This document shows positions 39,668 through 62,590 of a DNA stretch of 64,000 nt, one piece after another. Below the pieces are notes generated by a model that saw only the letters and a list, made by a program, of their open reading frames with translations, was not told the DNA's origin and made no database searches. Numbering within the stretch: the stretch's first letter is position 1; every line of letters starts with the position of its first letter. Both the position numbers and the translations under genes were made by a program. Origin of the DNA: a virus (lineage: Duplodnaviria > Caudoviricetes); the IMG/VR virus record IMGVR_UViG_3300049198_000021, positions 32,001-96,000 of that record. One strand, written 5' to 3'.

Positions 39668-40058
39668 TACGCGGCGCGTGACCCCTCCCGGAGGCCCCTT
39701 CCGCGCCGGTCCCGGTAAGGTTAACGGCCCATTAACCTTTCTCCACCAGTAAGGTTAACGAAATCGGTCAATTTGTTAAGGTTAACAGCGCGTTAAGGTT
39801 AACAAACCCCTAATTTACTGCTCGTTAACCTTAACGAATATGGTTAACGGGCCATTAACCATGTTTGTTAACGTTAACGACTCGTTAAGGTTAATATGCG
39901 GAGCGATTTCGTTAAGGTTAACAGATTCGGGGCATCCGTTAACGTTAACGAGGTCTCCCCTCCCCGTTAACCATTGATCTGGAAAAAGTGCTTGACCGAA
40001 TCGGTTGCTTCTGCGACTCAGGATGCACGGCGAATCACCGCCGCTTGGAGACGACCTA

Positions 40059-40304
40059 ATGCCTTTGAAACCCGCCGCCGCTCTCAGCAAGGATAAGCTG
40101 GGCGCAAGCCACCCCGCCGCCCTCCAGCACCGGCACTTCGCCGTCATCGCTGGAATCCTCGCCAACCTCGACCGGGACAGCCTCGGCTTGACGCAAGGGC
40201 AGCACCTCAACATCTGCCAAGACTTCGCGTCCGAACTCTCCGGAACAAACCCGAAATTCGACGAGCGTCGATTCATGGTCGCTTGCGGGTTCGCGGCCCC
40301 CTGA
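40059..40304 (+). CDS. cassette gene, hypothetical
   Basis: GGAGA RBS; HF..IA...NPKFDERRFMVAC. Confidence 0.75.
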   Translation: MPLKPAAALSKDKLGASHPAALQHRHFAVIAGILANLDRDSLGLTQGQHLNICQDFASELSGTNPKFDERRFMVACGFAAP

Positions 40305-40402
40305 TGGGGTGTCTCGACGCTATCGCCCGGTTCTTTCTGGGCGTCTTTCTGTTGATCCTTGCAACTGGGCTGGCCGCGTGCCAGCCCCTTTTCTTACGGT
40401 AA
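40304..40402 (+). CDS. 32-aa lipobox micro-peptide
   Basis: MGCLDAIARFFLGVFLLILATGLAACQPLFLR; TGATG coupling; two paralogues. Confidence 0.55.
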   Translation: MGCLDAIARFFLGVFLLILATGLAACQPLFLR

Positions 40403-40568
40403 CCAGCCGTTAAGGTTAACGCGGCGGGTAATTCGTTAAGGTTAACGCGGCGGGGTAATTCGTTAAGGTTAACGCGCCGGTTGAAATCGTTAACCATCAA
40501 AGTGGAAAAGTGCTTGACCGAATCGGTTGGACCACCTAGACCCGAATCACCAACAACGGAGACAGACC
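40399..40568 (+). promoter_or_regulatory. representative cassette promoter: GTAA-N7-TTAA, TTAACCAT, A-tract, TTGACC-N17-TAGACC, two GANTC, RBS
   Basis: Direct reading; 17-bp spacer GAATCGGTTGGACCACC. Confidence 0.85.
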
Positions 40569-40820
40569 ATGAAACTGCAAGAAATTAGCACCACCGAGGT
40601 GGATGAATCGTGCCTCGACGACGACGGGAAGGTTCCTTACATCGCCTTGCATTGTGCAGCGACGGAAGCTGACGCGGCGTTCGTTATCGCACAAACGACC
40701 GACGGCTACGACGGACGCAGCGATTGGCGCTGGATTCGCCTCCCGAACGGCGATCTGATCCTTGGCGTGTTCCCGCAAGGCGACACCTATCTGCAATTCG
40801 CCGACACCATTGGCATTTAA
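40569..40820 (+). CDS. cassette gene, acidic hypothetical
   Basis: Module RBS. Confidence 0.75.
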   Translation: MKLQEISTTEVDESCLDDDGKVPYIALHCAATEADAAFVIAQTTDGYDGRSDWRWIRLPNGDLILGVFPQGDTYLQFADTIGI

Positions 40821-40834
40821 GGGGAGGCAAGTAA

Positions 40835-41203
40835 ATGAACCGCTATTTTTACGACCCGGCGACCGCCTCGTGGGGCTCGGCTGACGACCTCGAAATCTTC
40901 GAACTCGACGACCAGAACATGGACGCCGACGAAATCGAACAGGCGCTGTGCGACGCCTCGCACGTCGGGGCCGGGCTCGGCCTGAAATACCTGCTCGACC
41001 GCCGGGCCAAGAATGAGCCCTACCGCCGGGAGAACATCGGGATTCGCGCCGTGAAGGACAACGGCAAGACCGAATGGGAAGTGGTGGAGGACGACGCCGA
41101 CGCCGACGCCTTCGAACTTTACCGGCATGACACCGGGACGCTTGTCGAAGTTTGCGCCACCCGCGAAGACGCTACCGAATACTGGGAAGCGATCACCACC
41201 TAA
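40835..41203 (+). CDS. cassette gene, acidic hypothetical
   Basis: GGAGG RBS. Confidence 0.75.
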   Translation: MNRYFYDPATASWGSADDLEIFELDDQNMDADEIEQALCDASHVGAGLGLKYLLDRRAKNEPYRRENIGIRAVKDNGKTEWEVVEDDADADAFELYRHDTGTLVEVCATREDATEYWEAITT

Positions 41204-41208
41204 GGATT

Positions 41209-41234
41209 GGCGGGCTTCGGCCCGCCTTTCTTTT
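41209..41234 (+). terminator. intrinsic terminator (representative; similar hairpins close most cassettes)
   Basis: GGCGGGC-TTCG-GCCCGCC followed by TTTCTTTT. Confidence 0.85.
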
Positions 41235-41464
41235 ACCGGTAACTATTCGTTAAGGTTAACAGATTGGCTTTAGACGTTAACCATTAAAGTGGAAAAATTA
41301 GTCGAAATAGTGCTTGACCGAATCAGCGAATCATCCTAGACCAAATATCGGAATGACCCCTCCGGCGGGCCGCTCGATGACGGGGCGGATGGGGAGGAGG
41401 CGATGGGATAATCCGAAAGGATGAAGCCCACGTTAGCCCGCCAAATTGTAACAGGAGACAGACC

Positions 41465-41842
41465 ATGCAAACCATCTGGCAATTCGAAACCAAGAACTTC
41501 ACCGTCCGAATGTCTTGCGACTACGATCAGGACACCACAGACCTTTCGTGGGATGACACCGGCGAAGTCGCTGAAAAGCTGGCAAGCGGTGAATGGGCCT
41601 GCTATACCTTCCACGCCGAAGTTATCGAAAACTCCACCGTTAACACCATCGGGGAAGACTACCTCGGCGGTTCTATCTATGCCAACCCGGAAGACTTCCG
41701 GGACCATGTGGGGCTCGCAATCAAGAGCCGCGAAGATGGGCGCAACTATGGCAGCTACTTCACGGACATGATCCGCGAAGCGATCCGCGAGGCTCGCAAG
41801 ACCTACGCCGAACAGCGCCCGCGCCTTCGCGTTCCAGCCTAA
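41465..41842 (+). CDS. cassette gene, hypothetical
   Basis: Module RBS. Confidence 0.8.
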   Translation: MQTIWQFETKNFTVRMSCDYDQDTTDLSWDDTGEVAEKLASGEWACYTFHAEVIENSTVNTIGEDYLGGSIYANPEDFRDHVGLAIKSREDGRNYGSYFTDMIREAIREARKTYAEQRPRLRVPA

Positions 41843-42023
41843 GGGAGAGGGGCCTAGCGCCCCTCTTTCTTCGCCGGTAACTATTCGTTAAGGTTAACGC
41901 ATCGGGGTAATTCGTTAACCATCAAAGTGGAAAAAGTGCTTGACCGAATCACTTGAGACACCTAGAAACGAATCAGCAATGCAGGGAGCGACTCGCACCG
42001 GGCAGCTACAACGGAGATAGGCC

Positions 42024-42413
42024 ATGCCGCAAATTTTGATCGAATACACGAAGACGGAAGTCACCCGCGAACGGGTGTGGATCGAAGCCGACTCGCCCGC
42101 TGAGGCGTTGCGGGTTGTCGAGGAATATGAATTTGACAATTCGGACGCCTACGAAGTCGATTCGCTGCGCTGGGAAATCAGCGATGCTTCTGTGCATGAG
42201 GTGGAGCCCGTGGAAGTGGAAGTGCTTGTGCGCCTCCCCGTCGCCATCACATGCGAGCGCGACAACGTGGAGACCGTGGTCCACCGCGTGGCGACCGTCG
42301 CCGAAGCCGAAGAGTGGATTGCCGTGGGTCTTGCCGACGGGTTCCTTGACGAAGACGACGTGGAACAGGGCACCTACGGAATCGATGCCCCTGAGGAGAT
42401 GATAAACCCATGA
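42024..42413 (+). CDS. cassette gene, very acidic
   Basis: Module RBS. Confidence 0.75.
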   Translation: MPQILIEYTKTEVTRERVWIEADSPAEALRVVEEYEFDNSDAYEVDSLRWEISDASVHEVEPVEVEVLVRLPVAITCERDNVETVVHRVATVAEAEEWIAVGLADGFLDEDDVEQGTYGIDAPEEMINP

Positions 42414-42670
42414 CCATCATGCGCCCATTCGTGAACATAAACGGCACCAGCCGGGCCGCTCTTGTCGATCAGCGCCGCGCCGCGATGGAAGCCGTCCGGC
42501 TTGCCATGACGGCCCTGCAAGAGACCTGCCCGCATGGCCGCGACTACATCGGCGATCCGGCCCGCTTCGACCATGACCGGGGCGTCTATAACCGGCGGTT
42601 CGCCAAGCTGGACGAATTGCACAACGACTTGCTGGACGAAGCGTTAGCGATTCAGAATGGAGGGGCTTAG
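42410..42670 (+). CDS. cassette gene, hypothetical
   Basis: ATGA coupling; NGTS...PHGRDY. Confidence 0.75.
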   Translation: MTIMRPFVNINGTSRAALVDQRRAAMEAVRLAMTALQETCPHGRDYIGDPARFDHDRGVYNRRFAKLDELHNDLLDEALAIQNGGA

Positions 42671-42804
42671 GCCCCTCTATTTTTACCAGTAACTCGGCGT
42701 TAAGGTTAACACCACAGAGATCGGCCTTAACCATTAAAGTGGAAAAAGTGTTTGACCGAATCGCTTGTTTGTCATAGAACGAATCATCACAACGGAGACA
42801 GACC

Positions 42805-43134
42805 ATGAAAGACTTGCTTGACCGCTGCCTCGCCCGTCCGGGTAAAAACTTCGGAGCGGGCTATGGCTTCGCCCTCGCCTATCTGGACGACAAGATGAAC
42901 CCCGCTCACTTGCGGGACGCCGCTTGTCACATGGTCGGCAAGGCATACGGTCCCCACGGCTGGGCCGCTGCCCGTAAGAGCCCTGATCTGGCGTCATTCG
43001 TGCTGGCATACAGCGAAGCGGAATGCTTCGAAGACTTCGCAATCGAAGCGGCACAACTGCTGCTGGAATGGGGAATGCGTGGCGATCCGGACGCCGCCGC
43101 CGCGCTTCGCCTTTGCGGCCATCCGGGTTATTGA
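42805..43134 (+). CDS. cassette gene, hypothetical
   Basis: Module RBS. Confidence 0.75.
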   Translation: MKDLLDRCLARPGKNFGAGYGFALAYLDDKMNPAHLRDAACHMVGKAYGPHGWAAARKSPDLASFVLAYSEAECFEDFAIEAAQLLLEWGMRGDPDAAAALRLCGHPGY

Positions 43135-43281
43135 GGGAGGGGCTTCGGCCCCTTTCTTTTTATTCCTAACACATCGTTAAGGTTAACGCGCCGCCATTCT
43201 CCGTTAACCACTGGGATGGAGAAAGTGCTTGCTCGAATCACTTGATTGGTCTAGGGTGAAACTATCAAGAGGAGATTGCCC

Positions 43282-43515
43282 ATGAAAAACTTGCTCAAGG
43301 AATACCACCAAGCTGCTGACAGGGAAATCCAACGCTGGCCCGGCGTTGCGATTATCGAACGCAGGATCGGCAAACACGCCCGGCTGAGTCTGGAGTTTCA
43401 GGGCCGCAGGCGCTTTGTGATTCACCCGGCCTCACCCAGCGACGTTCGGGGAGTCCATCGCCACGTTCAGGATATTAAGCGCGTCCTGACTGAATTAGGT
43501 GCGAACCGGGTCTAA
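43282..43515 (+). CDS. cassette gene, possible HicA-like fold
   Basis: GKHARL...SPSDVRG...IKR pattern; AGGAG RBS. Confidence 0.5.
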   Translation: MKNLLKEYHQAADREIQRWPGVAIIERRIGKHARLSLEFQGRRRFVIHPASPSDVRGVHRHVQDIKRVLTELGANRV

Positions 43516-43597
43516 AAATAAGTGGAAAAAGTGATTGACCGAATCACTCTAACCGCCTAGACACGAATCACCGCAATCAAGCGGACGGAGACAGACT

Positions 43598-43954
43598 ATG
43601 AAAAACCTCGAAACCCGTATGAATAAGGGCCGGGACGGCTGGCAGGCAAAGACGGAAATCCCTCTCGAAGGGATCAGCATCACGGACGGCGACAAGGTGA
43701 AGCCGGCGATCCTGACGATCAGCACCCGCAAGCATTCGCGTGGCGGCCTCTCCACCGGTTGCAGCGTCGCCTTCCGCGACGGTAACTTCATGACGCACCG
43801 CGTCTATACCGACTTCAACGTCGCCTATACCCGCGACCCGAACGCTCGCTGCACCGAAAAGGCAATCGAGCGGATGCACTCCGAGGCGCTGGCGGACATT
43901 GCCACGATCGAATCAGCGGTTCGCGACCACTACGCCGCGCTCGAAGCGGAATAA
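43598..43954 (+). CDS. cassette gene (paralogue of 44115-44510)
   Basis: W.A.T..PL...ST.K.SRG.L...R.TEK.....H.E.L. Confidence 0.8.
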   Translation: MKNLETRMNKGRDGWQAKTEIPLEGISITDGDKVKPAILTISTRKHSRGGLSTGCSVAFRDGNFMTHRVYTDFNVAYTRDPNARCTEKAIERMHSEALADIATIESAVRDHYAALEAE

Positions 43955-44114
43955 GGGAAGGCGGGGAAACCCGCCTTTTCTTTTGCCCTTAGCCCGGTGT
44001 TAACCTTAACAAATCGGCCGCATTCGTTAACCATCAAAGTGGAAAAAGTGCTTGACCGAATCGCTTGTTCAACCTAGACACGAATCACCGCAATCAAGCG
44101 GACGGAGACAGACT

Positions 44115-44510
44115 ATGAACGAGACCACCGTCAAAAAAGACCACTGGGGTAAGTGGATTGCTGAAACCCGCACCCCGCTTCCCGGCATTCGCAGCATGAG
44201 CGCCACGAACAACGAAGAGCGCAACGAACCCGCCGCCTTGCTTGTCAGCACCTACAAGGACTCGCGTGGCGATCTGGTCAGCAACGCAATCGTGATCTTC
44301 ATCACGGACAGCGGCCACCGCACCGCAATCGGCGGCCCGACCGGCGACTACAGCCGCACCATCCGCCGCGAACGCGGCGCACGCGTCACCGAGAAGAAGC
44401 TTCGCAGCTATCACGCCGAATCGCTCGGCTATATCCCGCAGGTCGTCGCTGATCTGGCGAACCACTACAATCAGGGCGACCCGCTCGCCGAACGGGCGAA
44501 GGCGGCCTAA
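44115..44510 (+). CDS. cassette gene (paralogue of 43598-43954)
   Basis: Same motifs; identical leader. Confidence 0.8.
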   Translation: MNETTVKKDHWGKWIAETRTPLPGIRSMSATNNEERNEPAALLVSTYKDSRGDLVSNAIVIFITDSGHRTAIGGPTGDYSRTIRRERGARVTEKKLRSYHAESLGYIPQVVADLANHYNQGDPLAERAKAA

Positions 44511-44674
44511 AAAGACTGGCGGGCTCCGGCCCGCCTTTCTTTTGCCGGTAACCAACCGTTAAGGTTAACGCGACGAGATAATTAGTTAACCATTAAAGTG
44601 GAAAAAGTGCTTGACCGAATCAGCGAGTCACCTTATCAACGAATCACCGCAATCAAGCGGACGGAGACAAGACC

Positions 44675-45025
44675 ATGTGCAACATCGGCGGGCAGATTGG
44701 CCCCTTCATGTATAACCCGGCCTGCAAGCCGGTTGAACGCAAGGTCGGCAAGGTGACGTTCCTTGTCGGCATCGCGACCGCCTACAACGCGTTCGGCCTG
44801 ATTGGCACCGAACACAACGGCATCTTCATTCTCGACGACACGAACATGACCGTCGTCATGGACCGTCACAGCGAAGGCTCGGCTGGTGGCTTCGGCCCCT
44901 ACGGCTCGCAAGTCGCTGAGCGTGACCGCCTGCTCGCCCTGAGCGACGCGGACTTCCTCGCCTTCATTCGCAGCAACCCCCGCTTCCGTGGTGTGGACCT
45001 ACCGAACGTGGGGAAGGCCGCATGA
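44675..45025 (+). CDS. cassette gene, hypothetical
   Basis: Module RBS. Confidence 0.75.
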   Translation: MCNIGGQIGPFMYNPACKPVERKVGKVTFLVGIATAYNAFGLIGTEHNGIFILDDTNMTVVMDRHSEGSAGGFGPYGSQVAERDRLLALSDADFLAFIRSNPRFRGVDLPNVGKAA

Positions 45026-45324
45026 TCGACCGGGACAAGTTTCTCGCCATGCTCGACACACTGGAGTGTCGCGGCCTCATCAACGCACCAACAGCCTATT
45101 CAGGACGGGGAATGTATGGAAAGCGTTGCATCGCCCTGACTGGGGATTCGGTCAGCGAATGGGGCCTCGCAATCCAAATGGCGGCCATTGCCGACGAATA
45201 CGACGTGACGCCCTACGACCTGCCTGAGCCCTCGACCGATTCGATGGGACGGGGCATCGTCCTCTATTGGCGGGGCCTCGAATGGCCGGAAGACCGCCGC
45301 GATCCGGACGAAGACGAATACTAA
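45022..45324 (+). CDS. cassette gene, hypothetical
   Basis: YSGRGMYGKRC...DSMGRG; ATGA coupling. Confidence 0.75.
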   Translation: MIDRDKFLAMLDTLECRGLINAPTAYSGRGMYGKRCIALTGDSVSEWGLAIQMAAIADEYDVTPYDLPEPSTDSMGRGIVLYWRGLEWPEDRRDPDEDEY

Positions 45325-45474
45325 GGGAAGGCGGGGCAACCCGCCTTTTCTTTTGCCCTTAGCCCGGTGTTAACCTTAACAAATCGGATCAAGTAGTTAA
45401 CCATCAAAGTGGAAAAAGTGCTTGACCGAATCGCTTGTGCAACCTAGAACCGAATCACCAACAGGAGACAGACC

Positions 45475-45783
45475 ATGCGAATCAGTCACATTGAAATGAC
45501 CATCACCCTCGAAGACGGCCAGACCGTGCAGGGCCTTATCAGCCCGGAAGGCGAATCGCGCTGGGGCAATGACATTCCCCACCTCGCCGCCGCCGTGATA
45601 CCCATGGAAGCCATGGCCGCCGCCTTGCAGGAAAACGACGCGTGGGAACGCGAAGAAGAAGACGAAGACGAATACCACGGCGAATGCGGCCAGTGCGAAG
45701 GCACCGGCACAATCGAAGGCGGGCTTGGCGGTGATGGGGACGACGAAGAATGCCCTGTCTGTGACGGAAGCGGGGAACTCTGA
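45475..45783 (+). CDS. acidic protein with DnaJ-type CxxCxGxG zinc finger
   Basis: CGQCEGTG...CPVCDGSG. Confidence 0.75.
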   Translation: MRISHIEMTITLEDGQTVQGLISPEGESRWGNDIPHLAAAVIPMEAMAAALQENDAWEREEEDEDEYHGECGQCEGTGTIEGGLGGDGDDEECPVCDGSGEL

Positions 45784-46025
45784 TGCACAAGACCCCGCCC
45801 GCAATCGACACCAGCGTTACCGTCCAACTCTGGACGCCCGGCGGCTTGATTGTCAGCATCCCCGCCGGGTTCATTACGTCCGATCCCGTCCGGGCTTCGC
45901 TCGACAAGCGGACGCAAGAAGGCGACACACACGCGGCAATCACCATGGCCCGGCACACCGGCCTAGACGTAACCATCCGCCGGGAAACCCAGACCACCGT
46001 TCGCGCCTCCGATCTGGAGGCGTGA
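45783..46025 (+). CDS. cassette gene, hypothetical
   Basis: TGATG coupling. Confidence 0.6.
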   Translation: MHKTPPAIDTSVTVQLWTPGGLIVSIPAGFITSDPVRASLDKRTQEGDTHAAITMARHTGLDVTIRRETQTTVRASDLEA

Positions 46026-46151
46026 GCGCCCGTTTACCAGCCGTTAACCTTAACAAATTGAACTAACTTGTTAACCGCTGATCTGGAAAAAGTGCTTGAC
46101 CAAATGCAACGGCTCGCCTAGAAACGAATCAGTTGAAACGGAGACAAGACC

Positions 46152-46709
46152 ATGTTTGATGCACTCGACCAGAAGACTTTCATCCTTTGCGGGCTCGCAA
46201 TCGAAGCGGCGGCGGATGACGACGAATCAATCGACAAGCGCGACCCGTCAAAGCTGGAATATCAGCGCGGCTCCGAAGTCACCGGGGTGGCATGGCTGAG
46301 CGGCTATGACTCACGGGGTGACGCCCCGCCTTGCCTGCAAAAGGTGATCGACTCGCACTATGACGCGCAAAACGCCGAATGGAAGCGGCAATATCCGGAC
46401 CGCCCCGATCTGCACCTTTGCGTGGATTATGCCGACGCCCTCCCCTACGCTGGGGAAGCTGAGGAATGGCTGGACGCCGTGCTGAGCGGCCCGGACGGGC
46501 GCGGGGAAGCCGCCTATCTGCAAATCGAAGTCACTTTCGACGACGATACGGTTCAATGGTGGGCGCGCTTTACCGATGAAATCAACGCCCCGCTATCCGA
46601 AGGCGGGCGCGGCGAAATGGACGCCGAAGCGTTCCTTGCGCTGGACGACGACGCGCTGGAAACGCTCGCAAAGGAGATTGCCGAGTCGGCTTATGACTAC
46701 GGCGCTTGA
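46152..46709 (+). CDS. cassette gene, acidic
   Basis: Module RBS. Confidence 0.8.
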   Translation: MFDALDQKTFILCGLAIEAAADDDESIDKRDPSKLEYQRGSEVTGVAWLSGYDSRGDAPPCLQKVIDSHYDAQNAEWKRQYPDRPDLHLCVDYADALPYAGEAEEWLDAVLSGPDGRGEAAYLQIEVTFDDDTVQWWARFTDEINAPLSEGGRGEMDAEAFLALDDDALETLAKEIAESAYDYGA

Positions 46710-46850
46710 AGACTGGCGGGCTCCGGCCCGCCTTTCTTTTGCCGGTAACCAGCCGTTAACCTTAACAAGTCGTTACCACTAGGTGGAAAAAGTGATTGAC
46801 CGAATCGGTTGTGTCTCCTAGAAACGAATCAGTTGAAACGGAGACCGACC

Positions 46851-47147
46851 ATGAGCATCACATACCACACCACCCTGCCCGCTTGGGAACACGGTGAACT
46901 CGATGAAAGAGGCTGCCTACGCCCGACGAAAGGTAAGCTGATCTGGAGCAATACCAACCCGCCTCCGGCGATTGGCGACCGCGTTCGCATCCGCGTCAAC
47001 GGCATCGGCATGGCGACCGTGGAGTCCTACTTCGAACAGGAAGGCTATCTCGGCATCCTGACGACCGTTGACGCTTGGCCGACGTTCTTCGCCAAGCAGA
47101 ACGGCGAGGACCGCTCCTGCCACGCGTTCGGCGCTGAAATCGCTTAA
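46851..47147 (+). CDS. cassette gene, hypothetical
   Basis: Module RBS. Confidence 0.75.
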   Translation: MSITYHTTLPAWEHGELDERGCLRPTKGKLIWSNTNPPPAIGDRVRIRVNGIGMATVESYFEQEGYLGILTTVDAWPTFFAKQNGEDRSCHAFGAEIA

Positions 47148-47309
47148 AGACTGGCGGGCTCCGGCCCGCCTTTCTTTTGCCGGTAACCAGCCGTTAACCT
47201 TAACAAATCGGCCTAAGTTGTTAACCATCAAAGTGGAAAAACTACTTGACCGAATCGGCTGGAACGCATAGAAACGAATCACCGCAATCAAGCGGTTGGA
47301 GACCTGACC

Positions 47310-47732: not shown

Positions 47733-47864
47733 GTTAGGGGCTTAGGCCCCTTTCCTTTCCCGGTAACCTGCCGTTAACCTTAACAATCGGTTACCATTAA
47801 GTGGAAAAAGTGCTTGACCGAATCGGTTGTCTAACCTAGAACGAATCATCTAAGGAGACAGACC

Positions 47865-48388: not shown

Positions 48389-48508
48389 CCGGGACGATCC
48401 CGGTAACCAGCCGTTAACCTTAACAAGTCGTTACCACTAGGTGGAAAAAGTGCTTGACCGAATCGCTTGTGTTGCTTAGAAACGAATCAGTTGAAACGGA
48501 GACAGACC

Positions 48509-53646: not shown

Positions 53647-53809
53647 AAGGGACCCGGCGGCTCTGAGAAGTGCCGCCGGGTTTCTCTTTTTGGGTAACTG
53701 GTTGTTAAGGTTAACGCCGGGTTACCAGAGGTGGAAATAGTGCTTGACCGAATCACTGGAAAATGCGAATCAGGGGTTACCGGAAGAGACCGGAAACAGG
53801 AGACAGACC

Positions 53810-54206: not shown

Positions 54207-54336
54207 TTCTGGTAACCAATCGTTAAGGTTAACAGAGCGGCCGAATGGGTTAACCATCAAAGTGGAAAAAGTGCTTGACCGAATCACTGGGAACGGGCAA
54301 ACGAATCAGGCGCACTCAAGCGCCGGAGACAAACCA

Positions 54337-54893: not shown

Positions 54894-55249
54894 ACCGGGA
54901 GGGGCTTCGGCCCCTCTTTGGATCGCATTCATTTTGGATCGCCACCGCTTTGGACCGGGCCGATTTTGGATCGGGCCGGTTTTGGTTTTGGACCGTTTCG
55001 ATTTTCATGATCGCCGCCATTTTGAAGGCAGCGCGACCGGGCCGAATCAGTTGATCAAGCGTTAACCAAACCGACCGGAACCGATGGTTAACAAAACTGA
55101 TCATTCTGTTAAGGTTAACGAAATCGTGGAAATCGTTAACAAATATGGTTAACAAAATACCCCTATTTGTTAACCATCAAAATGGAAAAAGTGCTTGACC
55201 GAATCAGCGAATCGCCCTAGAAACGAATCACCAACAACGGAGACAGACC

Positions 55250-55576
55250 ATGCTTTCACTGGATCAATACACTGGCCGCCACGAAGCCGCCGCCGTTCGC
55301 CGCCTGATCGGGCACGCCCTCGCACAAGACTGGACGGTGAGCGTCAATGACGGGGAAGAATGGACCGTCAAGAAATCCCGCGACAGCGACGAAATTCTGG
55401 CGGCGCTCGCCACAACCGGCGAAGACACCCTGAAATTCCGCGACCCGGAAGGCAAGGCCGTCGGGACTATGTATCTGGTTTATCAGGGCGGCGACAACCC
55501 CGGCGACGAAGTTGTTTGCGACTACAGCGACAACGAATCGATGGATTATCTCTACCGCCGGACATTCCCGGCTTGA
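55250..55576 (+). CDS. cassette gene, hypothetical
   Basis: Module RBS. Confidence 0.8.
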   Translation: MLSLDQYTGRHEAAAVRRLIGHALAQDWTVSVNDGEEWTVKKSRDSDEILAALATTGEDTLKFRDPEGKAVGTMYLVYQGGDNPGDEVVCDYSDNESMDYLYRRTFPA

Positions 55577-55751
55577 CAACGGGCGGGGAGGGAAAACCCT
55601 CCCCGTTGCCGATTCGTTCCATGGTTAACGGAATCGGAGGATTTGTTAAGGTTAACGAATGGGTTAAAGTTGTTAACCATCAAAGTGGAAATAGTGCTTG
55701 ACCGAATCGCCTATGCCGACTAGAAACGAATCAGTTGAAACGGAGACAGCA

Positions 55752-55904
55752 ATGGCGAAAAACTGGGAAGCGTTCTTTGCAGCGATGAGCGATTCCGATC
55801 TACTATCGGCACAGCTTACTTGGGGCCGTGAGGGGGAGGACAGCGAAAACTTGGAAGCTTGGGCTGCCGTGAATCAGGAAGTTTTCGAACGGGGTTTGGA
55901 GTAG
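55752..55904 (+). CDS. cassette gene, 50-aa acidic
   Basis: Module RBS. Confidence 0.65.
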   Translation: MAKNWEAFFAAMSDSDLLSAQLTWGREGEDSENLEAWAAVNQEVFERGLE

Positions 55905-55930
55905 GGGCTGCGGCCCCTCTCTTTCTGCTC

Positions 55931-55945
55931 TTAACCCGGCGTTAA
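55931..55945. promoter_or_regulatory. perfect CtrA box TTAA-N7-TTAA (others at 39721, 39782, 39844, 39874, 56326, 58875, 60875)
   Basis: TTAA-CCCGGCG-TTAA matches the established alphaproteobacterial CtrA consensus. Confidence 0.7.
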
Positions 55946-56059
55946 GGTTAACGTAATGAGGTAAATCGTTAACCATAGAAGTGGAAATTAAATGGAAAAA
56001 GTGCTTGACCGAATCAGCGAATCACCTTAGACCGGGATCACCAACAACGGAGACGACCG

Positions 56060-56293
56060 ATGGAACTCGCTGAATACTTCACTTGCCCGGACCGCCCGAC
56101 CTTCCTGCAATTCGGCAAGCTGGTGAATGCCCGCCTCGAATCGCGCTGCGGCCTCGGCATCCTCGACTTGCCGGATCAGGATTATTCCAGCCTTCACGAA
56201 GACTGGGACGGGACCGTCCAGCACGCCTGTGACATCGCAGACGAAATCCTCGAAGAAGAAGGCTTCGGGATGGATGAAGATTACGACTTTTGA
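56060..56293 (+). CDS. cassette gene, very acidic
   Basis: Module RBS. Confidence 0.75.
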   Translation: MELAEYFTCPDRPTFLQFGKLVNARLESRCGLGILDLPDQDYSSLHEDWDGTVQHACDIADEILEEEGFGMDEDYDF

Positions 56294-56460
56294 GAGAAGG
56301 GGCTTCGGCCCCTTTTCTTTTGCCCTTAACTCCGCGTTAAGGTTAACAGATCGGACCACTTTGTTAACCATTAAAATGCAAGCAAGTGGAAAAAGTGCTT
56401 GCACGAATCAGTGGCCTAGGGCAAACGAATCAGGCGACACAGAGCCGCCGGAGACGACCT

Positions 56461-56760
56461 ATGACAACCCTGAGCATCAAGACCGCCCGCCCCGCCGCCA
56501 CCATCCGCGCCGAGCGCATCGCCTACGATCGCATCCCCGCGACGCCCGCCGAGCGCGCCACCGCCCTCGCCCTCCTGATCGACGGGGACGCATGGACCCT
56601 CGCCGAATACGTCGCGTGGATCAACCGCGACGCCGCCACCTTCGCCCTCATGGGTGCGGCTGAGTGGGCCGAGCGCGGCATCACCACCGCTTCCGCCCTT
56701 GGCGACCTTCTGGACGCCGAGAATGAGCGCAACCTGAGAAAAGAGGCCATGTATGGCTAA
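56461..56760 (+). CDS. cassette gene, hypothetical
   Basis: Module RBS. Confidence 0.75.
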   Translation: MTTLSIKTARPAATIRAERIAYDRIPATPAERATALALLIDGDAWTLAEYVAWINRDAATFALMGAAEWAERGITTASALGDLLDAENERNLRKEAMYG

Positions 56761-57157
56761 GAAACTAGCCGCCGCTTATGCGGCTGTCACCGAGGCACAC
56801 AAAGCCCACGAAGACGCCCTAAACGCCGCTGAGGCCGCTTTGACGGATCATGTGGAGCAAATGCTAACCGAACTCGCCAAGCGGTTCCCGCGCCGACGCT
56901 TCTACGCCTCATCAGGGATGGGAAGCCTTTCTATCGAAGTCTATCCCGGACCTAAGCCGCGTTACGCACACCACCCGCGCCAGCCTTACAAATGGTTCTG
57001 GGGCGGAATGTGGGGACCGGATAACACTTGGCGATTCCTGTGGCAGGATTGGGAAGACCTGCTCGATTCGTTCATCAAAGAGACCGGGCAGACCGCTAAC
57101 GATTACGTCAACTTCACCCGTGAACTTGACGTGAGGGGCACACGCTACAAGGATTAA
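56753..57157 (+). CDS. cassette gene, hypothetical
   Basis: GAGG RBS, overlap. Confidence 0.7.
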   Translation: MAKKLAAAYAAVTEAHKAHEDALNAAEAALTDHVEQMLTELAKRFPRRRFYASSGMGSLSIEVYPGPKPRYAHHPRQPYKWFWGGMWGPDNTWRFLWQDWEDLLDSFIKETGQTANDYVNFTRELDVRGTRYKD

Positions 57158-57292
57158 GGGAAGGGCGGACCGCCGCCCTTTTCCTTGTTAGTGGTTCGTT
57201 AAGGTTAACCAATCCTGCCACTTGAGTGGAAAAAGTGCTTGACCGAATCAGTGGAGCCGCCTAGACCGGGCTGACCAACACGGAGATTTTCT

Positions 57293-57544
57293 ATGACCTC
57301 GATTCGCGACCTCGCCCACGCCCGCCACCTCGTCGCCACCGGCGAAGCCGCCGCTCGCATGGCCCGCACCTCGCAGCAGGCCGAAAACCTGCGGATCGCG
57401 TTCGTGGAGCGCTGGGAGGCGCTTGGCGACCTCACCACCTGCGCCGCCATTGATGAAGGCAAATGGCTTGACAGCCAAATCAAGGAACTGGATTGCGACT
57501 GGGGCGACCCTGTATCGCCTGAATGCGAATGGCACCTGCACTAA
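57293..57544 (+). CDS. cassette gene, hypothetical
   Basis: Module RBS. Confidence 0.7.
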   Translation: MTSIRDLAHARHLVATGEAAARMARTSQQAENLRIAFVERWEALGDLTTCAAIDEGKWLDSQIKELDCDWGDPVSPECEWHLH

Positions 57545-57711
57545 GGGCGCGGGCTTCGGCCCGCCTCTTGGCTGGTAACGGTTTGTTAAGGTTAACGCCC
57601 GACCGGAATTTGTTAACCATCAAAATGGAAAGTAAGTGGAAAATTGCTTGACCGAATCGGCTTAGACTGGCACTAACGAATCACCGCAATCAAGCGGACG
57701 GAGACAAGACT

Positions 57712-57798
57712 ATGAGCCGACACCAGAAACGCCGCCTTGCCGCCAAGCGTGCGCGCATCGCCATTCTTTCCTCGTGGATCGCAAAGGGCCGCCGCTAA
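57712..57798 (+). CDS. 28-aa basic peptide
   Basis: MSRHQKRRLAAKRARIAILSSWIAKGRR after module RBS; TAATG coupling. Confidence 0.6.
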   Translation: MSRHQKRRLAAKRARIAILSSWIAKGRR

Positions 57799-58064
57799 TG
57801 GCTGGCTTCTGGGATCGCGTGGACACCCTCGAAATGGTGGAACTCTACGCCGAGGACAACGGGCAGATTGCCAGCGAAGAGGAGCTTTCCAAGCGCTTTG
57901 ACGCCGAAATCCTTCCGCTCGTGCTGGAGCAATACAGCGAGTCCGATACGGTCGCAATCAATGAGGCTTTCAACGATTGGACCGATTCGCTCTGCAAGGA
58001 CGGCGAAATCCACCCGGATCAATACGATTCTTACTGCTACGTTGGGAGGCTGGCAGACGACTAA
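57798..58064 (+). CDS. cassette gene, very acidic
   Basis: EAFNDWTDSLCKDG motif. Confidence 0.75.
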   Translation: MAGFWDRVDTLEMVELYAEDNGQIASEEELSKRFDAEILPLVLEQYSESDTVAINEAFNDWTDSLCKDGEIHPDQYDSYCYVGRLADD

Positions 58065-58173
58065 GGCGAGGGGCTTCGGCCCCTCACCAAACTTTTTTCG
58101 TAATTAGTGGAAAAAGTGCTTGACCGAATCAGTTGGCTCGCCTAGAAACGAATCAACAGCAACGGAGGCAGTC

Positions 58174-58326
58174 ATGCAGATCAACACTTACCACGTTTAC
58201 ATCAACAACACCTTTTCCGGGATCATCTCGGCGGTGTCTTACCGGCAGGCTCTCAAGCGCGCCAAGGCAAAGCATCGCGGCCCGGTTGACGTGATCGGGT
58301 TCGTCTCCGCAAAGGCGAAGGTTTAA
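58174..58326 (+). CDS. cassette gene, small basic
   Basis: GGAGG RBS; resembles the N-terminus of 63030-63302. Confidence 0.65.
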   Translation: MQINTYHVYINNTFSGIISAVSYRQALKRAKAKHRGPVDVIGFVSAKAKV

Positions 58327-58488
58327 GGGGAGGGGCTTCGGCCCCTCTTTCTTTTTGCCTGTTACGATCTGTTAACCTTAACAAATATGGTTAACAAATT
58401 AACGTTTGGCGTTAACCATTAAAGTGGAAAAAGTGCTTGACCGAAGCAGTGACTCGTGTGAAAACGAATCATCAATCGGAGACAGATC

Positions 58489-58668
58489 ATGAAGAATCGC
58501 AACACCCTTGACGCCCGTTACAGCATCCGCCTCGAATGGTGCGGACACGCCACGCAACAATGGGTCGCCCGCTTCTGTGGTGATTGGCTGGGCTGCGATG
58601 CAACCCGCTCGGGCGCTGAGGAAATCGCCCGGCTTTATGAGCGCGACCGCTGGGCGGTGGCGGCATGA
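58489..58668 (+). CDS. cassette gene (59 aa)
   Basis: Own translation MKNRNTLDARYSIRLEWCG... Confidence 0.7.
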   Translation: MKNRNTLDARYSIRLEWCGHATQQWVARFCGDWLGCDATRSGAEEIARLYERDRWAVAA

Positions 58669-58841
58669 AACCGAAACACCCTTGCAGCGTAAAGCGCGAC
58701 GCAATTTTTCTGGCCGCTGTAAAGCATCCCTTCACCCGGTGGAACGAACACACAGGCGAACAACAAGCCAGATTTATCAAGCAGGCCACGCATATCCGGG
58801 AGCATCTGCGGGATTACGAACCGGGAGCATTCATCGACTAG
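58665..58841 (+). CDS. cassette gene (58 aa)
   Basis: ATGA coupling; followed by terminator. Confidence 0.55.
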   Translation: MKPKHPCSVKRDAIFLAAVKHPFTRWNEHTGEQQARFIKQATHIREHLRDYEPGAFID

Positions 58842-58990
58842 CAAGAGGCGGGAGCGATCCCGCCTTTCGCATTGTTAACCCAGTGTTAAGGTTAACATAT
58901 TGGTCTAAGTTGTTAACCATCAAAGTGGAAAAAGTGATTGACCGAATCAGCAAATCGGCCTAGACCCGAATCATCAACCGGAGACAGATC

Positions 58991-59119
58991 ATGCAAAACA
59001 TCCGCAAGAACCCCATCGCCGCCTCGCTCGCCAGCGCCCACCTCGTCCCTCGCAAGGTTCGCGCTCGCAAGGGCAAGGGCTCTTTCCGCCGCAACCCGAA
59101 ACACCGGGGCGCGGCGTGA
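58991..59119 (+). CDS. ArfA-like (alternative ribosome-rescue factor A) peptide, 42 aa
   Basis: MQNIRKNPIAASLASAHLVPRKVRARKGKGSFRRNPKHRGAA; KGKGS(Y/F)xRxxKH signature; module RBS; missing from ORF track. Confidence 0.7.
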   Translation: MQNIRKNPIAASLASAHLVPRKVRARKGKGSFRRNPKHRGAA

Positions 59120-59460
59120 GCGACCGCATCCGCCCCGTGGTTTTCGACTCGGCCCAGATCGAGCCCTTTGCCGCTCGCATCATCGGCATAGCCGCTTCGC
59201 AATTCTGTCGCCTCAAGGAGCGCGAGAAAGAGACCGGAGAGAAGTCGGACCCCTTCGACATGGAAGACGCTCTGATGCACCTCTGGTGGGCTCTCAAGGG
59301 GCTTGACCACATCGCAATAGCGTTGCGCGGCGGCAGGGATTGCGACGACCCGTCTGGCGTTCATTTTTCCATGGTGATGAACGCAGAACACGCCCGGATT
59401 CGCCGCCTTATCATGGAAGAACTCGGAGTCGATCCCGGATCACACCCGCGCTGGAAATGA
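59116..59460 (+). CDS. cassette gene, hypothetical
   Basis: GTGA coupling. Confidence 0.65.
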   Translation: MSDRIRPVVFDSAQIEPFAARIIGIAASQFCRLKEREKETGEKSDPFDMEDALMHLWWALKGLDHIAIALRGGRDCDDPSGVHFSMVMNAEHARIRRLIMEELGVDPGSHPRWK

Positions 59461-59613
59461 GGGGCTTCGGCCCCTCTTTCTTTTCTGGTAACCGTTCGTT
59501 AACCTTAATAAACGGCCCGAAATCGTTAACCATCAAAGTGGAAAAAGTGCTTGACCGAATCAGCGAATCGGCCCATACCCGAATCACCGCAACCAAGCGG
59601 ACGGAGACAGTCA

Positions 59614-59904
59614 ATGCAGACCAACGATCCCAGCGCCGTCACCCACCACAACGGAGGCACCACCTTCACCGGCGACGCCATCCACCTCTACCGCGCCGTG
59701 ACCCTCAAGGGCGCTCTCAAGCTGCACCGCGATTGCGGCATGATCCCGACTCGCGGCATGACCATCACAAAGATGTTCGCCATCGCCCAGCAGATCACCG
59801 GCAAGAAGTATAAGCGCGGCGGCCATGATGCGGCCATCACCGACCTGACCGCGTGGATCGAAGCCGCCAAGGCATCCATGCCGATCATCGACGAGCGGAC
59901 CTGA
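59614..59904 (+). CDS. cassette gene, hypothetical
   Basis: Module RBS; ITGKKYKRG. Confidence 0.75.
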   Translation: MQTNDPSAVTHHNGGTTFTGDAIHLYRAVTLKGALKLHRDCGMIPTRGMTITKMFAIAQQITGKKYKRGGHDAAITDLTAWIEAAKASMPIIDERT

Positions 59905-60132
59905 AAGGAGATTGGTTAACGGGGAAGCCCTCCCCGTTAACCATATTTCCGGCTGGTAACCAGTCGTTAAGGTTAACAGCGCCGCAGCATTCCTTAACCA
60001 TCAAAGTGGAAAGTAAGTGGAAAAAGTGGTTGCACGAATCAGCGAATCGGTCTAGACCCGAATCACCGGGCGGCACCTACTGACTGGCAGAGCAGCGGCA
60101 AGGCTCGCCCGGTAAACAACAGGAGACAGACC

Positions 60133-60294
60133 ATGTTCGAAGTGATCACTACGCTCCGCACCTTCTATGTGCAGGCTGACACTTTCAACCTCGCCGTCCT
60201 CTCGGCTTATCAATTCATTCTGGACGACGAATCGATCCTCGGCATCAAGACCGACGGACCTGCAACGTTCATCATCGTGGAGATCGCAGCATGA
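60133..60294 (+). CDS. cassette gene (53 aa)
   Basis: Own translation MFEVITTLRTFYV... Confidence 0.65.
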   Translation: MFEVITTLRTFYVQADTFNLAVLSAYQFILDDESILGIKTDGPATFIIVEIAA

Positions 60295-60509
60295 TCAGCA
60301 AGAAAGACGCAATCGCCAAGGCAATCGCGGCTGGAGCCTCGCAAGAGGAAATCGACCGCCAAGCCGCAAACTACGTCCGCCAAGTGGGCAGCGTGCCTTT
60401 CAACAACATGATTCGCGCCCTTAACCTAGGCCCGTGGCTCAACACGGTTGACGACTGGACCCCGCTGGCAGCAGCCCTGACCGCGAGGGGATTGGCGCGA
60501 AAGCGCTAA
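60291..60509 (+). CDS. cassette gene, hypothetical
   Basis: ATGA coupling. Confidence 0.7.
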   Translation: MISKKDAIAKAIAAGASQEEIDRQAANYVRQVGSVPFNNMIRALNLGPWLNTVDDWTPLAAALTARGLARKR

Positions 60510-60629
60510 TTCCTTAACGGAATAGGGGAATTTGTTAAGGTTAACCCGAATTAAGAATAAAGTGGAAAAAGTGCTTGACCGAATCGGTTAACCATCCTAG
60601 AAACGAATCAACAGCAACGGAGACACACC

Positions 60630-60842
60630 ATGAAGATCAAGATCAAGACCACCGCCCGCTACACCGCCAAGCGCAAGGCTGCTATCATCGCCGACGTGGA
60701 CAACGGCACTACCACCCTCGAAGAGGTTTGCAGCCTGCACAACATCACAAGCGAAGAGTTCGACGGCTGGCGCAAGTCGCTGGACCGCTCGGGACAGCAG
60801 GGGCTTCGGATCACCCGGCTGCAACACTACCGGGCAGCATAA
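60630..60842 (+). CDS. sciP: SciP-like CtrA inhibitory protein (DUF1153)
   Basis: RYTAKRKAAII..V.NG...LEEVC....ITSEEF..W...LDR.G..GLRITRLQHYR aligns gaplessly with recalled SciP RWVxRRKAEVV..V.GG...LEEAC....LTxEEF..W...IDRHG..GLRxTRxQxYR. Confidence 0.85.
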   Translation: MKIKIKTTARYTAKRKAAIIADVDNGTTTLEEVCSLHNITSEEFDGWRKSLDRSGQQGLRITRLQHYRAA

Positions 60843-60972
60843 GGGAAGGGGCTTCGGCTCTTTTTCTTTTGCCTTTAACCCAGTGTTAAGGTTAACAAGT
60901 CAACTGAATTAGTTAACTAATTAGCTGGAAAAAGTGCTTGACCGAATCAGCGAATCGGCCTAGACCCAAGCC

Positions 60973-61140
60973 ATGGAAATGACCCTTTCAGAAATCCGCC
61001 ACAAGCGTGACCGGGCAATCGTTCAGCGCCGACTCGGCGAGGAACGCCGCCGCCACGTTAACCAATGCGTCGCCGACATCATCGCACAAGGAAAGATGGA
61101 AGAGCGCCGCCAGACCACCCGACGGGAGGAAGACCAATGA
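60973..61140 (+). CDS. cassette gene (55 aa), possibly leaderless
   Basis: ATG 6 nt after the TAGACC -10 hexamer; no RBS. Confidence 0.5.
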   Translation: MEMTLSEIRHKRDRAIVQRRLGEERRRHVNQCVADIIAQGKMEERRQTTRREEDQ

Positions 61141-61337
61141 CAGACCGCCGATTCGTAATTGTCGAAAACGCCGGATATGAAGGCGAGCAAGACATCACCC
61201 ACTTTCTCACCTTGCGGGAGGCATTCGCCTATCAGCGCGGCCATTATGAGCCGGACGAGATCGAAGAATTGCACGTCGATATTCGCCAAGACTGGACGGA
61301 CGAAAACGGCGATTTTCATCAGGAATATGTCTATTAG
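61137..61337 (+). CDS. cassette gene, acidic
   Basis: GGAGG RBS; ATGA coupling. Confidence 0.7.
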   Translation: MTDRRFVIVENAGYEGEQDITHFLTLREAFAYQRGHYEPDEIEELHVDIRQDWTDENGDFHQEYVY

Positions 61338-61404
61338 GTGGAAAAAGTGCTTGACCGAATCGGTGGCCTATGCGAAAACGAATCATCGAAACGGAGACAA
61401 GCAA

Positions 61405-61599
61405 ATGACCACCATCCTGATCCTCGCCGCCGCCGCCCTGATCTTCGCCACCGTGGCATTTTTCAAGGCCCGCGCCGAACTCGCCGCTCACGCCGCCGAA
61501 CAGGCAAGCAAGCATATCCCCAACCCCACCATCTACAGCGGCCCGCGCTTCACCGCACATGGCCGGGAAATCCAACAGACCGGACGGCGGATCATCTGA
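61405..61599 (+). CDS. cassette gene, single-TM protein
   Basis: MTTILILAAAALIFATVAFF. Confidence 0.7.
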   Translation: MTTILILAAAALIFATVAFFKARAELAAHAAEQASKHIPNPTIYSGPRFTAHGREIQQTGRRII

Positions 61600-61755
61600 G
61601 AAAGGGGCGGGAGAAATCCCGCCCTTTTCTTTGGCCGGTAACCGGGTGTTAAGGTTAATAAAACGGTGAAATTCGTTAATCATCAAAGTGGAAAAAGTGC
61701 TTGACCGAATCGGTTGGCGAGTTTAGACCCGAATCATTGGAAACGGAGACAGACC

Positions 61756-61953
61756 ATGAGCAAGCCCACCGAACAAGCAATCGCCGCCGACCTCGACCTT
61801 TGCGACATGATCCTTGCATTCGGAACGCCCGCCGCCAAGCGAAAGGCCCGCGCCCACCGCAAGGCTTGTTTCGCAGAAATCGCCCGGATGAACGCCGAGG
61901 CCGGGACTGACAAACTGAGCGATGATGAATTGCTCGCTGAATTGATGGCCTGA
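61756..61953 (+). CDS. cassette gene, hypothetical
   Basis: Module RBS; LSDDELLAEL tail. Confidence 0.75.
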   Translation: MSKPTEQAIAADLDLCDMILAFGTPAAKRKARAHRKACFAEIARMNAEAGTDKLSDDELLAELMA

Positions 61954-62141
61954 TAGGAACCGGCCCCTGACAACAGGGGCCGGGACCCTAATTCACTGAG
62001 AACAAGGGCCGGGCTCTAAAATCGTAAATTCAGGTTAACCTTAACAGATCGGTCGAAATCGTTAACTATTAAAGTGGAAAAAGTGCTTGACCGAATCGTT
62101 TGGCGCGTTTAGACCCGAATCATTGAAAACGGAGACAGACC

Positions 62142-62417
62142 ATGGAAAGATTCGAACTGACGGGCTCGGGCATCAGCGACGGGCAGAATCCGGAAAAACT
62201 GCTTGCTGCCGCGAAAAAGTGCGGCCTTCGGAATCCCCGACTCGCCTATCACTACGGCTGGTCCAATCAGCCGAAAACGATTCGTTTCAGCGCCGAAAAC
62301 TGGGAAGCTGCCGATAAGGTCGCCGATCTGGTGCGAACCGAGTTTTACCCGGAAAACGCCGAGGGCCGTTTGTGCCCGATGATTCGGGCCTATCCGGTAA
62401 AAGCCCCAGAAGCCTGA
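62142..62417 (+). CDS. cassette gene, hypothetical
   Basis: Module RBS. Confidence 0.75.
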   Translation: MERFELTGSGISDGQNPEKLLAAAKKCGLRNPRLAYHYGWSNQPKTIRFSAENWEAADKVADLVRTEFYPENAEGRLCPMIRAYPVKAPEA

Positions 62418-62590
62418 TCCCGGAAAAGCCCGATTCGCCGAATCGGGCTTTTTCCTTTTTCGGTAACCCTGCGTTAACCTTAATAAAACGGCGAAAATCG
62501 TTAACCCTAAAAATCGGCCTTTCTGGAAAAAGTGCTTGACCGAATCGGCCTTTTCTGGAAAAACCGGACCACCGCAAAGGGAGAAAAGAC

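Follow-up and report, generated by a model that had tools for sequence, protein, structure and literature searches.

Which regulator reads the short TTAAC-type words that recur through the 24 kb following the large terminase (TerL) gene of the uncultured phage recorded as IMGVR_UViG_3300049198_000021? The stretch analysed here (the window) comprises 64,000 nucleotides, bases 32001-96000 of this 176.5-kb IMG/VR record, which is one linear contig without repeats at its ends; it holds an array of 40 cassette promoters, most of which are preceded by such words. An earlier note on the same DNA had read the words as sites for the bacterial cell-cycle regulator CtrA. This assignment is well supported at the sequence level, as both the N7-spaced dyad and the 8-mer TTAACCAT are present and the array is syntenic with the terminal repeat of phage phiCbK. 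We regard it as probable that the TTAAC-type boxes are sites for the phosphorylated host regulator (CtrA~P), which would activate from upstream, such that the early array would follow CtrA activity. CtrA wiring of early phage promoters was already shown in 2022 in relatives, and the present case is a large and regular example of it.

The box words were counted on both strands of the window and compared with expectations from dinucleotide shuffles. These non-independent counts are 45 for KTAA-N7-TTAA (0.63 expected), 33 for TTAACCAT, which Laub et al. are said to have assigned in 2002 as a CtrA half-site (0.85 expected), and 58 for the 12-mer GTTAAGGTTAAC with at most one mismatch (0.13 expected); the three words KTAA-N7-TTAA, TTAACCAT and GTTAA(GG/CC)TTAAC stand at 40-400 times chance. 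They are also confined, with 46 of the 47 exact 12-mers of the whole 176.5-kb genome falling at 38483-62045, i.e., in the 24 kb after TerL. On the plus strand of the array, 31 KTAA-Nx-TTAA pairs are spaced by N7, as against one each at N6 and N8, which bears out the earlier observation of a fixed spacing around a variable N7. The three examples quoted for it are likewise in place (GTAACCAGCCGTTAA at 40399, GTAACTATTCGTTAA at 41239 and 41877, and TTAACTCCGCGTTAA at 56326). Other peaks on this strand, at N2 (54 pairs), N13 (33), N17 (39) and N23 (43), are due to the composite layout of the boxes. Inspection of the dyad indicates that the “N7” is C-N5-G, i.e., KTAAC-N5-GTTAA, with an upstream half that is mostly GTAA; the perfect TTAAC-N6-GTTAA is present in four cassettes. 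The centre of the 12-mer, compared over 39 box-anchored promoters, is GG in 23, CC in 15 and CG in one; hence, one half of the 12-mer reads TTAACC, the start of TTAACCAT, on one strand or the other.

The 40 promoters are near-identical plus-strand copies, at 39.9-62.5 kb, of a core GTGGAAAAAGTGCTTGACCGAATC, which reads GTGGAAAAAGTGC-TTGACC-GAATC. A typical unit starts with a GC-rich hairpin with a T-run, which precedes most of the 40 promoters, and continues with GGTAAC-N6-GTTAA(GG or CC)TTAAC, 15 nt, GTTAACCAT, caaa-GTGGAAAAAGTGC, TTGACC-GAATC, ~12 nt, cCTAGAaaCGAATCA, another ~12 nt and GGAGAcagacc-ATG, which includes a strong ribosome-binding site. The 12-mer is found within 115 bp upstream of the core in 37 of the 40 promoters, the N7 dyad in 26, and the exact TTAACCAT in 22, in 15 of which it starts exactly 25 nt before TTGACC. 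Thus, the claim that the N7 dyad lies upstream of most promoters holds, but the near-invariant element is the 12-mer instead. In a short form seen in four cassettes, the 12-mer is followed by N5-GTTACC, which yields two head-to-head dyads instead of the usual pairing of the 12-mer with TTAACCAT. Further, the cassette promoters at 43535, 58120 and 61351 retain the full core and A-tract without upstream TTAAC boxes and represent natural box-less controls; hence, the box and core modules are separable. A lone diverged copy of the core, ATGGAAAAAGTAGTTGACCAAATC, lies on the minus strand outside the window and far from the array (G000:C1:17526).

Each cassette drives one or two small ORFan genes of 28-185 aa. 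The cassette genes have PHROG matches only to families of unknown function, and among the 20 largest first genes only one, the SciP-like gene considered below, gave a function-assigning Pfam match; an Rfam scan of 36-64 kb gave no match. An E. coli-type promoter scan left the cassette promoters undetected, on account of a -10 without the final T, so that the promoters are called by their likeness to the alphaproteobacterial sigma-70 consensus, CTTGAC-N17-CTATAT. The core looks like such a promoter, with cTTGAC, ~17 nt and CTAGAA forming the predicted -35, spacer and -10 ahead of a predicted start site, and the A-tract just upstream of the -35 resembles a proximal UP subsite.

The phylogenetic setting of the phage helps to interpret this arrangement. 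Judged from its sequence, it is a phiCbK/Lacusarx-like siphophage, with the Erythrobacter phages XM05 and vB_EliS-L02 (L02) as nearest cultured relatives, and from these relatives its host would be an Erythrobacteraceae-type bacterium. In tblastn comparisons, its TerL is 91% identical to that of XM05, 70% to Lacusarx, 69% to L02, 53% to the Citromicrobium phage RXM and 39% to phiCbK. The gene order RuvC-TerL-array is shared with the phiCbK/Lacusarx cluster: in XM05, L02 and Lacusarx, the same gap separates TerL from a one-strand array of small genes, and in phiCbK an annotated 10-kb terminal repeat begins within the TerL 3' end. The TerL homology and the TerL-then-array synteny therefore identify the array as the counterpart of the phiCbK-type terminal repeat, and the 24-kb stretch would be an early, terminal-repeat-type region. 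L02 was presented in its publication as the first phage of the CbK type to infect Erythrobacter, and that paper makes no mention of CtrA or of the promoters (PMC9127768).

The experimental precedent comes from Mascolo et al. (2022), who found the predicted CtrA sites of phiCbK-like phages, Lacusarx and Cp1R7A-A1 to be gathered in the terminal repeats, in front of small genes without known function (PMC9437464). Purified CtrA~P shifts probes of phiCbK gp005 and gp018, an effect that is lost on mutation of the sites, and a ctrA-ts strain shows hardly any activity from either promoter, which indicates that CtrA activates them (PMC9437464). The phiCbK dyads of the form TTAAC-N6-GTTAAC bind CtrA in electrophoretic mobility shift assays and need CtrA in reporters, and both kinds of assay also cover sites of the Mesorhizobium phage Cp1R7A-A1 (PMC9437464). 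For Lacusarx, a Sphingobium phage, 29 predicted CtrA sites are given genome-wide, with totals only in the supplement (PMC9437464). Erythrobacter-type phages lie outside that study, which contains 0 mentions of them (PMC9437464). In the phiCbK terminal repeat, TTAACGGTTTGTTAAC occurs upstream of genes 5 and 18 of the repeat, equated with gp005 and gp018 from their order, and three more of its promoters carry GTAACCTTTTGTTAA, the “G” variant that dominates in the present phage. Neither gp005 nor gp018 was found in the phiCbK time-course tables.

The present array resembles those of the phiCbK-like phages in several respects: the TerL proteins are 39-70% identical, the region directly follows TerL and consists of small unknown genes on one strand, the sites are intergenic and confined to one region, and the words GTAAC-N6-GTTAA (three in the phiCbK repeat) and 12-mer-N15-GTTAACCAT are shared. 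However, this putative terminal repeat is larger and more uniform, with 24 kb and 40 promoters against ~10 kb in phiCbK and 29 predicted sites in the whole Lacusarx genome. Unlike in phiCbK, where the dyad appears at the -35 position (TTAACA being -35-like), the boxes here lie upstream of TTGACC and an A-tract; the core promoters carry GANTC words; and the GcrA homologue encoded by phiCbK is lacking. The unusual scale ascribed to the array is apt only relative to phiCbK and Lacusarx; the arrays of XM05 and L02 are equally large.

Among these relatives, XM05 has 39 12-mers and L02 has 40, nearly all within their arrays, and in the 104-kb Citromicrobium phage vB_CbaS-RXM, 25 of the 27 GTTAAC sites fall within 10 kb adjoining the terminase (OL963731.1 50-10283). 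The composite 12-mer-N14-16-GTTAACCAT is found in ~28 IMG/VR contigs, two of which are terminal repeats of the Caulobacter phages CcrBL9 and CcrSC, where it precedes quite different cores of the form TTGACA/T ... CTATGCGA; it recurs in XM05, L02 and Lacusarx as well. The box module is thus kept across Caulobacter and Sphingomonadales phages despite their differing core promoters. That the module outlasts both core-promoter replacement and a switch to hosts of another order suggests that its reader is conserved. A search of 596 Gb of bacterial genomes for the composite returned five matches, one of them in a Sphingomonadaceae chromosome. The 2468-bp contig JAYVXT010000122.1, binned in a “Bryobacterales” metagenome-assembled genome (MAG), has three copies and is probably a mis-binned fragment of a phage of the same group; the remaining matches in unrelated bacteria are presumably chance.

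The use of the same words by a host-type bacterium was examined in one 3.1-Mb Sphingomonadaceae MAG, as a stand-in for the host of the present phage. This genome encodes GcrA as well as a CtrA equivalog (417 bits, cut-off 350); sciP (133 bits) lies immediately upstream of ctrA and in the same orientation (G001:C6:96726-99980). It contains only seven copies of GTTAACCAT, all seven intergenic and pointing at the next gene. The 165-bp sciP-ctrA spacer holds one of them together with GTTAACC and GGTTAAC, another lies ~25 nt before cheA, a third is a full TTAA-N7-TTAACCAT, and those left stand in front of genes for a TPR histidine kinase, for a TolC-like protein and of unknown function. This distribution is as expected of CtrA sites, and the occurrences at the ctrA and cheA promoters make the host CtrA a likely reader. 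The CckA-ChpT-CtrA relay is conserved in Sphingomonadales and the CtrA words are conserved across Alphaproteobacteria (PMC2877005). Host CtrA promoters (TTAA-N7-TTAAC, TTAACCAT) use the words found in the phage promoters, with half-sites that likewise have an 11-bp period, but host sites are single and near the start codon, whereas the phage stacks three to four half-sites 60-100 bp upstream. The 12-mer was also considered as a common host site and rejected, as it has a single copy in the 3.1 Mb; stacking of half-sites at 6 bp is therefore a habit of the phage and not of the host. The sole bacterial copy is a phage-style 12-mer-N14-GTTAACCAT at G001:C1:214759-214793, ~45 nt upstream of a TolC-like efflux gene.

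In mechanistic terms, the host response regulator CtrA~P would bind the TTAAC-type boxes at ~-60 to -100, upstream of a full -35 and A-tract and in spacing classes ~11-12 bp apart, and would serve as an upstream (class-I-like) activator of a promoter whose weak -10 needs help. The whole early array would then fire according to host CtrA activity, and the truncated SciP-like protein from one cassette could feed back on CtrA-dependent transcription. An upstream-activator role is favoured on account of the non-overlapping upstream position of the boxes and the measured activation in phiCbK. Here we infer the sign of regulation, the early timing, binding by the CtrA of the real host and the SciP-like feedback. 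Pooled over the present phage, XM05, L02 and Lacusarx, the distances from the 12-mer to the -35 fall into classes of ~41/53/64/76/88 bp with a best period of 11.75 bp (R = 0.68), with p < 2e-4 on raw counts and p = 0.07 with repeated values collapsed; helical phasing is therefore kept as suggestive.

This last value is one of several points that weigh against CtrA as the reader. The near-invariant TTAA-N2-TTAA departs from the canonical CtrA dyad; the N7 form, which is canonical, occurs at just 26 of the 40 promoters and usually has GTAA as one half; the 12-mer is nearly absent from the host-type genome; the paralogy of the cassettes makes all motif counts non-independent; the -10 and transcription start are consensus assignments; and TerL relatives infecting Rhodobacterales, which are CtrA-bearing hosts, lack a box cluster. 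TerL relatives that infect Ruegeria, Rhodobacter and Microcystis have just 5-8 scattered GTTAAC sites. Some of these features would suit a different DNA-binding protein, either a factor of this phage group or a host protein, which would read GTTAA-SS-TTAAC / GGTTAACC, for instance for early shut-off, with the likeness to CtrA sites being partial or coincidental. The most conserved unit is indeed the 12-mer, with a 6-bp half-site spacing, palindromic ends and occurrence in either orientation, and the arrays track the phage lineage (phiCbK, Lacusarx, Erythrobacter, Citromicrobium) and not the Rhodobacterales-infecting TerL relatives. However, purified CtrA alone binds the equivalent phiCbK dyads, whose activity needs CtrA (PMC9437464); TTAACCAT and the N7 dyad exactly match CtrA words; GTTAACCAT marks ctrA and cheA in the Sphingomonadaceae genome; and the GG/CC centre turns one half of the 12-mer into TTAACC, an extended CtrA half-site. 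Further, a phage winged-helix regulator was looked for, and neither an OmpR-type winged helix nor a CtrA was found encoded by the phage. We consider such a different reader unlikely.

The uniformity of the units raises a separate question, namely whether CtrA binding is what the words are conserved for at all. Arbiol et al. reportedly described in 2010 promoter-early stem-loop (PeSL) cassettes in T4-type phages. The present units are like these in combining a repeated terminator hairpin and an early host-type promoter that flank small novel genes in a plastic region; however, the PeSL cassettes belong to another phage group and no transcription-factor box module is known to be described there, so that this is a resemblance only. 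By analogy, the 110-bp unit could be mainly a recombination or shuffling module kept uniform via gene conversion, with the TTAAC words as passengers. Such a module would fit the ~40 near-identical units placed around unrelated ORFan genes, the additional conservation of long runs of no obvious function, and the inflation of counts by paralogy. It fits less well with the conservation of boxes inside units in which N5, N15 and the spacer sequences vary freely, with their persistence where core promoters have been replaced, with the separability seen in the three core-only promoters, and with spacing classes about one helical turn apart. As both roles can coexist, a shuffling role would not exclude the predicted CtrA~P sites, and we hold it very unlikely that the words are passengers.

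A third possibility concerns the region between TerL and the array. The earlier note had placed the feature from 39715 onward, a range that contains the promoter array, but the boxes start 1.2 kb earlier, at 38483, in clusters devoid of promoters. A counterpart of the first of these clusters follows TerL in XM05, L02 and Lacusarx, and the layout of the gap behind it is kept in the same three phages, with phiCbK having iterons of its own. The gap is a candidate origin or packaging region that might be CtrA-gated. Since the densest clusters are promoter-less and flank a conserved iteron and AT-rich gap right after TerL, the boxes could act mainly in replication or packaging, either gating a phage origin in the way known from that of Caulobacter, or marking a terminal-repeat boundary, with the promoter copies being secondary. 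This may apply to the two clusters and still leave the promoter role intact, but as a general account it is more improbable still than a shuffling module, given the fixed box positions relative to the -35 at 37 promoters, the regulation of transcription by the phiCbK sites (PMC9437464), and the failure to find a DnaA box in the gap region.

With CtrA~P retained as the probable reader of the upstream boxes, a second set of words in the core promoters deserves attention. CGAATC, a form of the CcrM methylation word GANTC, immediately follows the -35 in 33 of 39 promoters and stands at the presumed start site, ~-3, in 26 of 39, and a GANTC with variable N occurs mid-spacer in eight of 39; genome-wide, 33 of the 37 matches to TTGAC-N0-1-GANTC are inside the array. 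Read on the opposite strand, the word becomes YGATTCG, in agreement with YGAKTCG, the consensus for GcrA. Relative to a consensus-based start site, the GANTC centres in the spacer are estimated at ~-27 and ~-19, and Wu et al. place GcrA boxes at centres of -20+/-1 or -30+/-2, or at +5 to +30 (PMC9976885). The promoters would resemble the methylated sigma-70 promoters of Caulobacter that depend on GcrA and CcrM in that GANTC words fall within the predicted spacer and at the presumed start, but differ in that the third GANTC, at ~-3, is outside the +5 to +30 range. Further, two of the three positions show A as the N without exception, hence CGAATC could be selected for another reason.

Comparison across the phages indicates that the two sets of words have had different histories. 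L02 and Lacusarx keep the GANTC word despite a different -35 context. In a related metagenomic lineage, represented by L042 (IMGVR_UViG_3300027631_000360) and L060, the 12-mer boxes are kept and GANTC has moved mid-spacer as CGA(A/C)TCG, with a second copy after the -10 that uses all four N and is followed by GTCAAC. Among 192 non-identical promoter-like sites from related IMG/VR contigs, which are non-independent, GANTC occurs once or more in 177, where 21+/-5 would be expected, and YGAKTCG occurs on either strand in 174. However, phiCbK has no GANTC excess, and in CcrBL9 and CcrSC no GANTC adjoins the -35 of the promoter-like sites. The GANTC module is therefore lineage-specific, being present in the Sphingomonadales-type phages and absent from the examined Caulobacter phages (phiCbK, CcrBL9 and CcrSC), unlike the CtrA boxes, which are universal across the same phages. 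The phage encodes neither GcrA nor an N6_N4 methyltransferase of the CcrM type. A positional-entropy test for a GcrA-site signal by Mascolo et al. was negative (PMC9437464), and the literature searched yielded no description of phage promoters with GANTC or GcrA boxes.

One cassette encodes a SciP-like protein that matches Pfam PF06627 (DUF1153) with E = 3.5e-20 (72.4 bits, cut-off 23.5) and NCBIfam CtrAInhibSciP (NF051866) with 68 bits, under the 100-bit equivalog cut-off. It is 48% identical to a Sphingomonadaceae chromosomal SciP (small CtrA inhibitory protein) encoded beside ctrA, from which it differs in lacking the N-terminal ~25 residues. Among 50,697 phage records, a homologue was recovered only in XM05; a word-based protein search gave only eight phage-type relatives, and a related-loci search returned no host SciP loci. 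In the promoter of this cassette, TTAACCAT (60588-60595) falls within the -35/-10 spacer and not upstream, hence the wiring of this cassette departs from that of the others. The gene, as predicted, supports a link to the CtrA circuit. Taken together with the GANTC words, it allows the tentative proposal, which we consider possible but would not favour at present, of a dual-input mimicry of host cell-cycle promoters in which upstream CtrA boxes are combined with CcrM-methylatable GANTC at GcrA-box positions, and the truncated SciP might close a feedback on CtrA. As the phage lacks both the methyltransferase and GcrA, the difference in methylation between injected and replicated DNA could recruit GcrA-sigma70 or time a shut-off. 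If true, the phage would engage three parts of the CtrA-GcrA-CcrM-SciP circuit, which would be new.

The coordinates of these features are collected below. Certain compositional peculiarities of the genome may be recorded separately. The tetranucleotide GTAC is entirely absent from the 176.5-kb genome against ~320 expected from trinucleotide frequencies, which looks like full avoidance of a GTAC-specific restriction system, and CTAG is scarce outside the array, with an observed/expected ratio (O/E) of 0.45. A comparable genome-wide avoidance of TTAA outside the array was considered and rejected: 108 are observed against 142 expected from trinucleotides, and this O/E of 0.76 is mostly a composition effect.

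Table 1. Positions, in the 64-kb window, of the terminase, the box clusters, the promoter array and representative cassettes.
Feature	Position	Strand	Remarks
Large terminase (TerL) gene	36754-38487	+	by tblastn; left anchor of the array
Box cluster 1	38483-38675	unstranded	six 12-mers and three TTAACCAT, without promoter core
Inter-cluster gap	38678-39668	unstranded	non-coding
Gap: GGGACCC repeats	38678-38836		
Gap: two AT-rich patches	39081-39380		39-40% GC, with GAAAAT repeats
Gap: iterons ATGGATCGAGGCCATTTT	39506-39664		6-7 copies
Box cluster 2	39714-39974		~nine 12-mer-type boxes and three TTAACCAT; continues into the first promoter of the array
Array of 40 cassette promoters	39992-62560	+	first TTGACC 39992, last 62536
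Example cassette: terminator hairpin of preceding unit	41847-41865	+	
Example cassette: N7 dyad GTAAC-N5-GTTAA	41877-41891	+	boxes A and B
Example cassette: 12-mer GTTAAGGTTAAC	41887-41898	unstranded	boxes B and C
Example cassette: TTAACCAT	41915-41922	+	box D; 25 nt before TTGACC, 21 nt after box C
Example cassette: core including A-tract GTGGAAAAAGTGC	41927-41967	+	consensus-assigned
Example cassette: -35 TTGACC	41940-41945		part of core
Example cassette: GAATC	41946-41950		part of core
Example cassette: -10-like CTAGAA	41962-41967		part of core
Example cassette: second conserved CGAATC (GANTC)	41970-41974	+	presumed start site
Short-form cassette: head-to-head dyads GTAA-N7-TTAA-CC-TTAA-N7-TTAC	46745-46776	unstranded	
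Further short-form cassettes	47763-47794, 48403-48434, 53694-53725		
SciP-like cassette	60575-60842	+	gene 60630-60842, 70 aa, DUF1153

It remains to consider what such an array would sense. The earlier note had proposed that it distinguishes the swarmer from the replicative state, with deferment or activation of the lytic programme. The underlying CtrA reading is supported by the sequence, but wiring of this kind and lytic deferment constitute an already published model (PMC9437464), and the reference to swarmer and replicative states carries Caulobacter biology over too far. In Sphingomonadales, ctrA is dispensable and functions chiefly in motility, with some influence on replication (PMC8116508, PMC2877005). 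The signal read is therefore better called CtrA~P activity or motility state, and is more likely to be of this nature. With this qualification, the published link between CtrA and phages is extended to marine Erythrobacter-type phages. The ~40 near-identical promoters, with their natural variation in box content, spacing and orientation, amount to a ready-made mutational series for upstream CtrA half-sites. Further, because ctrA is dispensable in Sphingomonadales, its deletion in the hosts of XM05 and L02 could test lytic deferment directly, which is impossible in Caulobacter.

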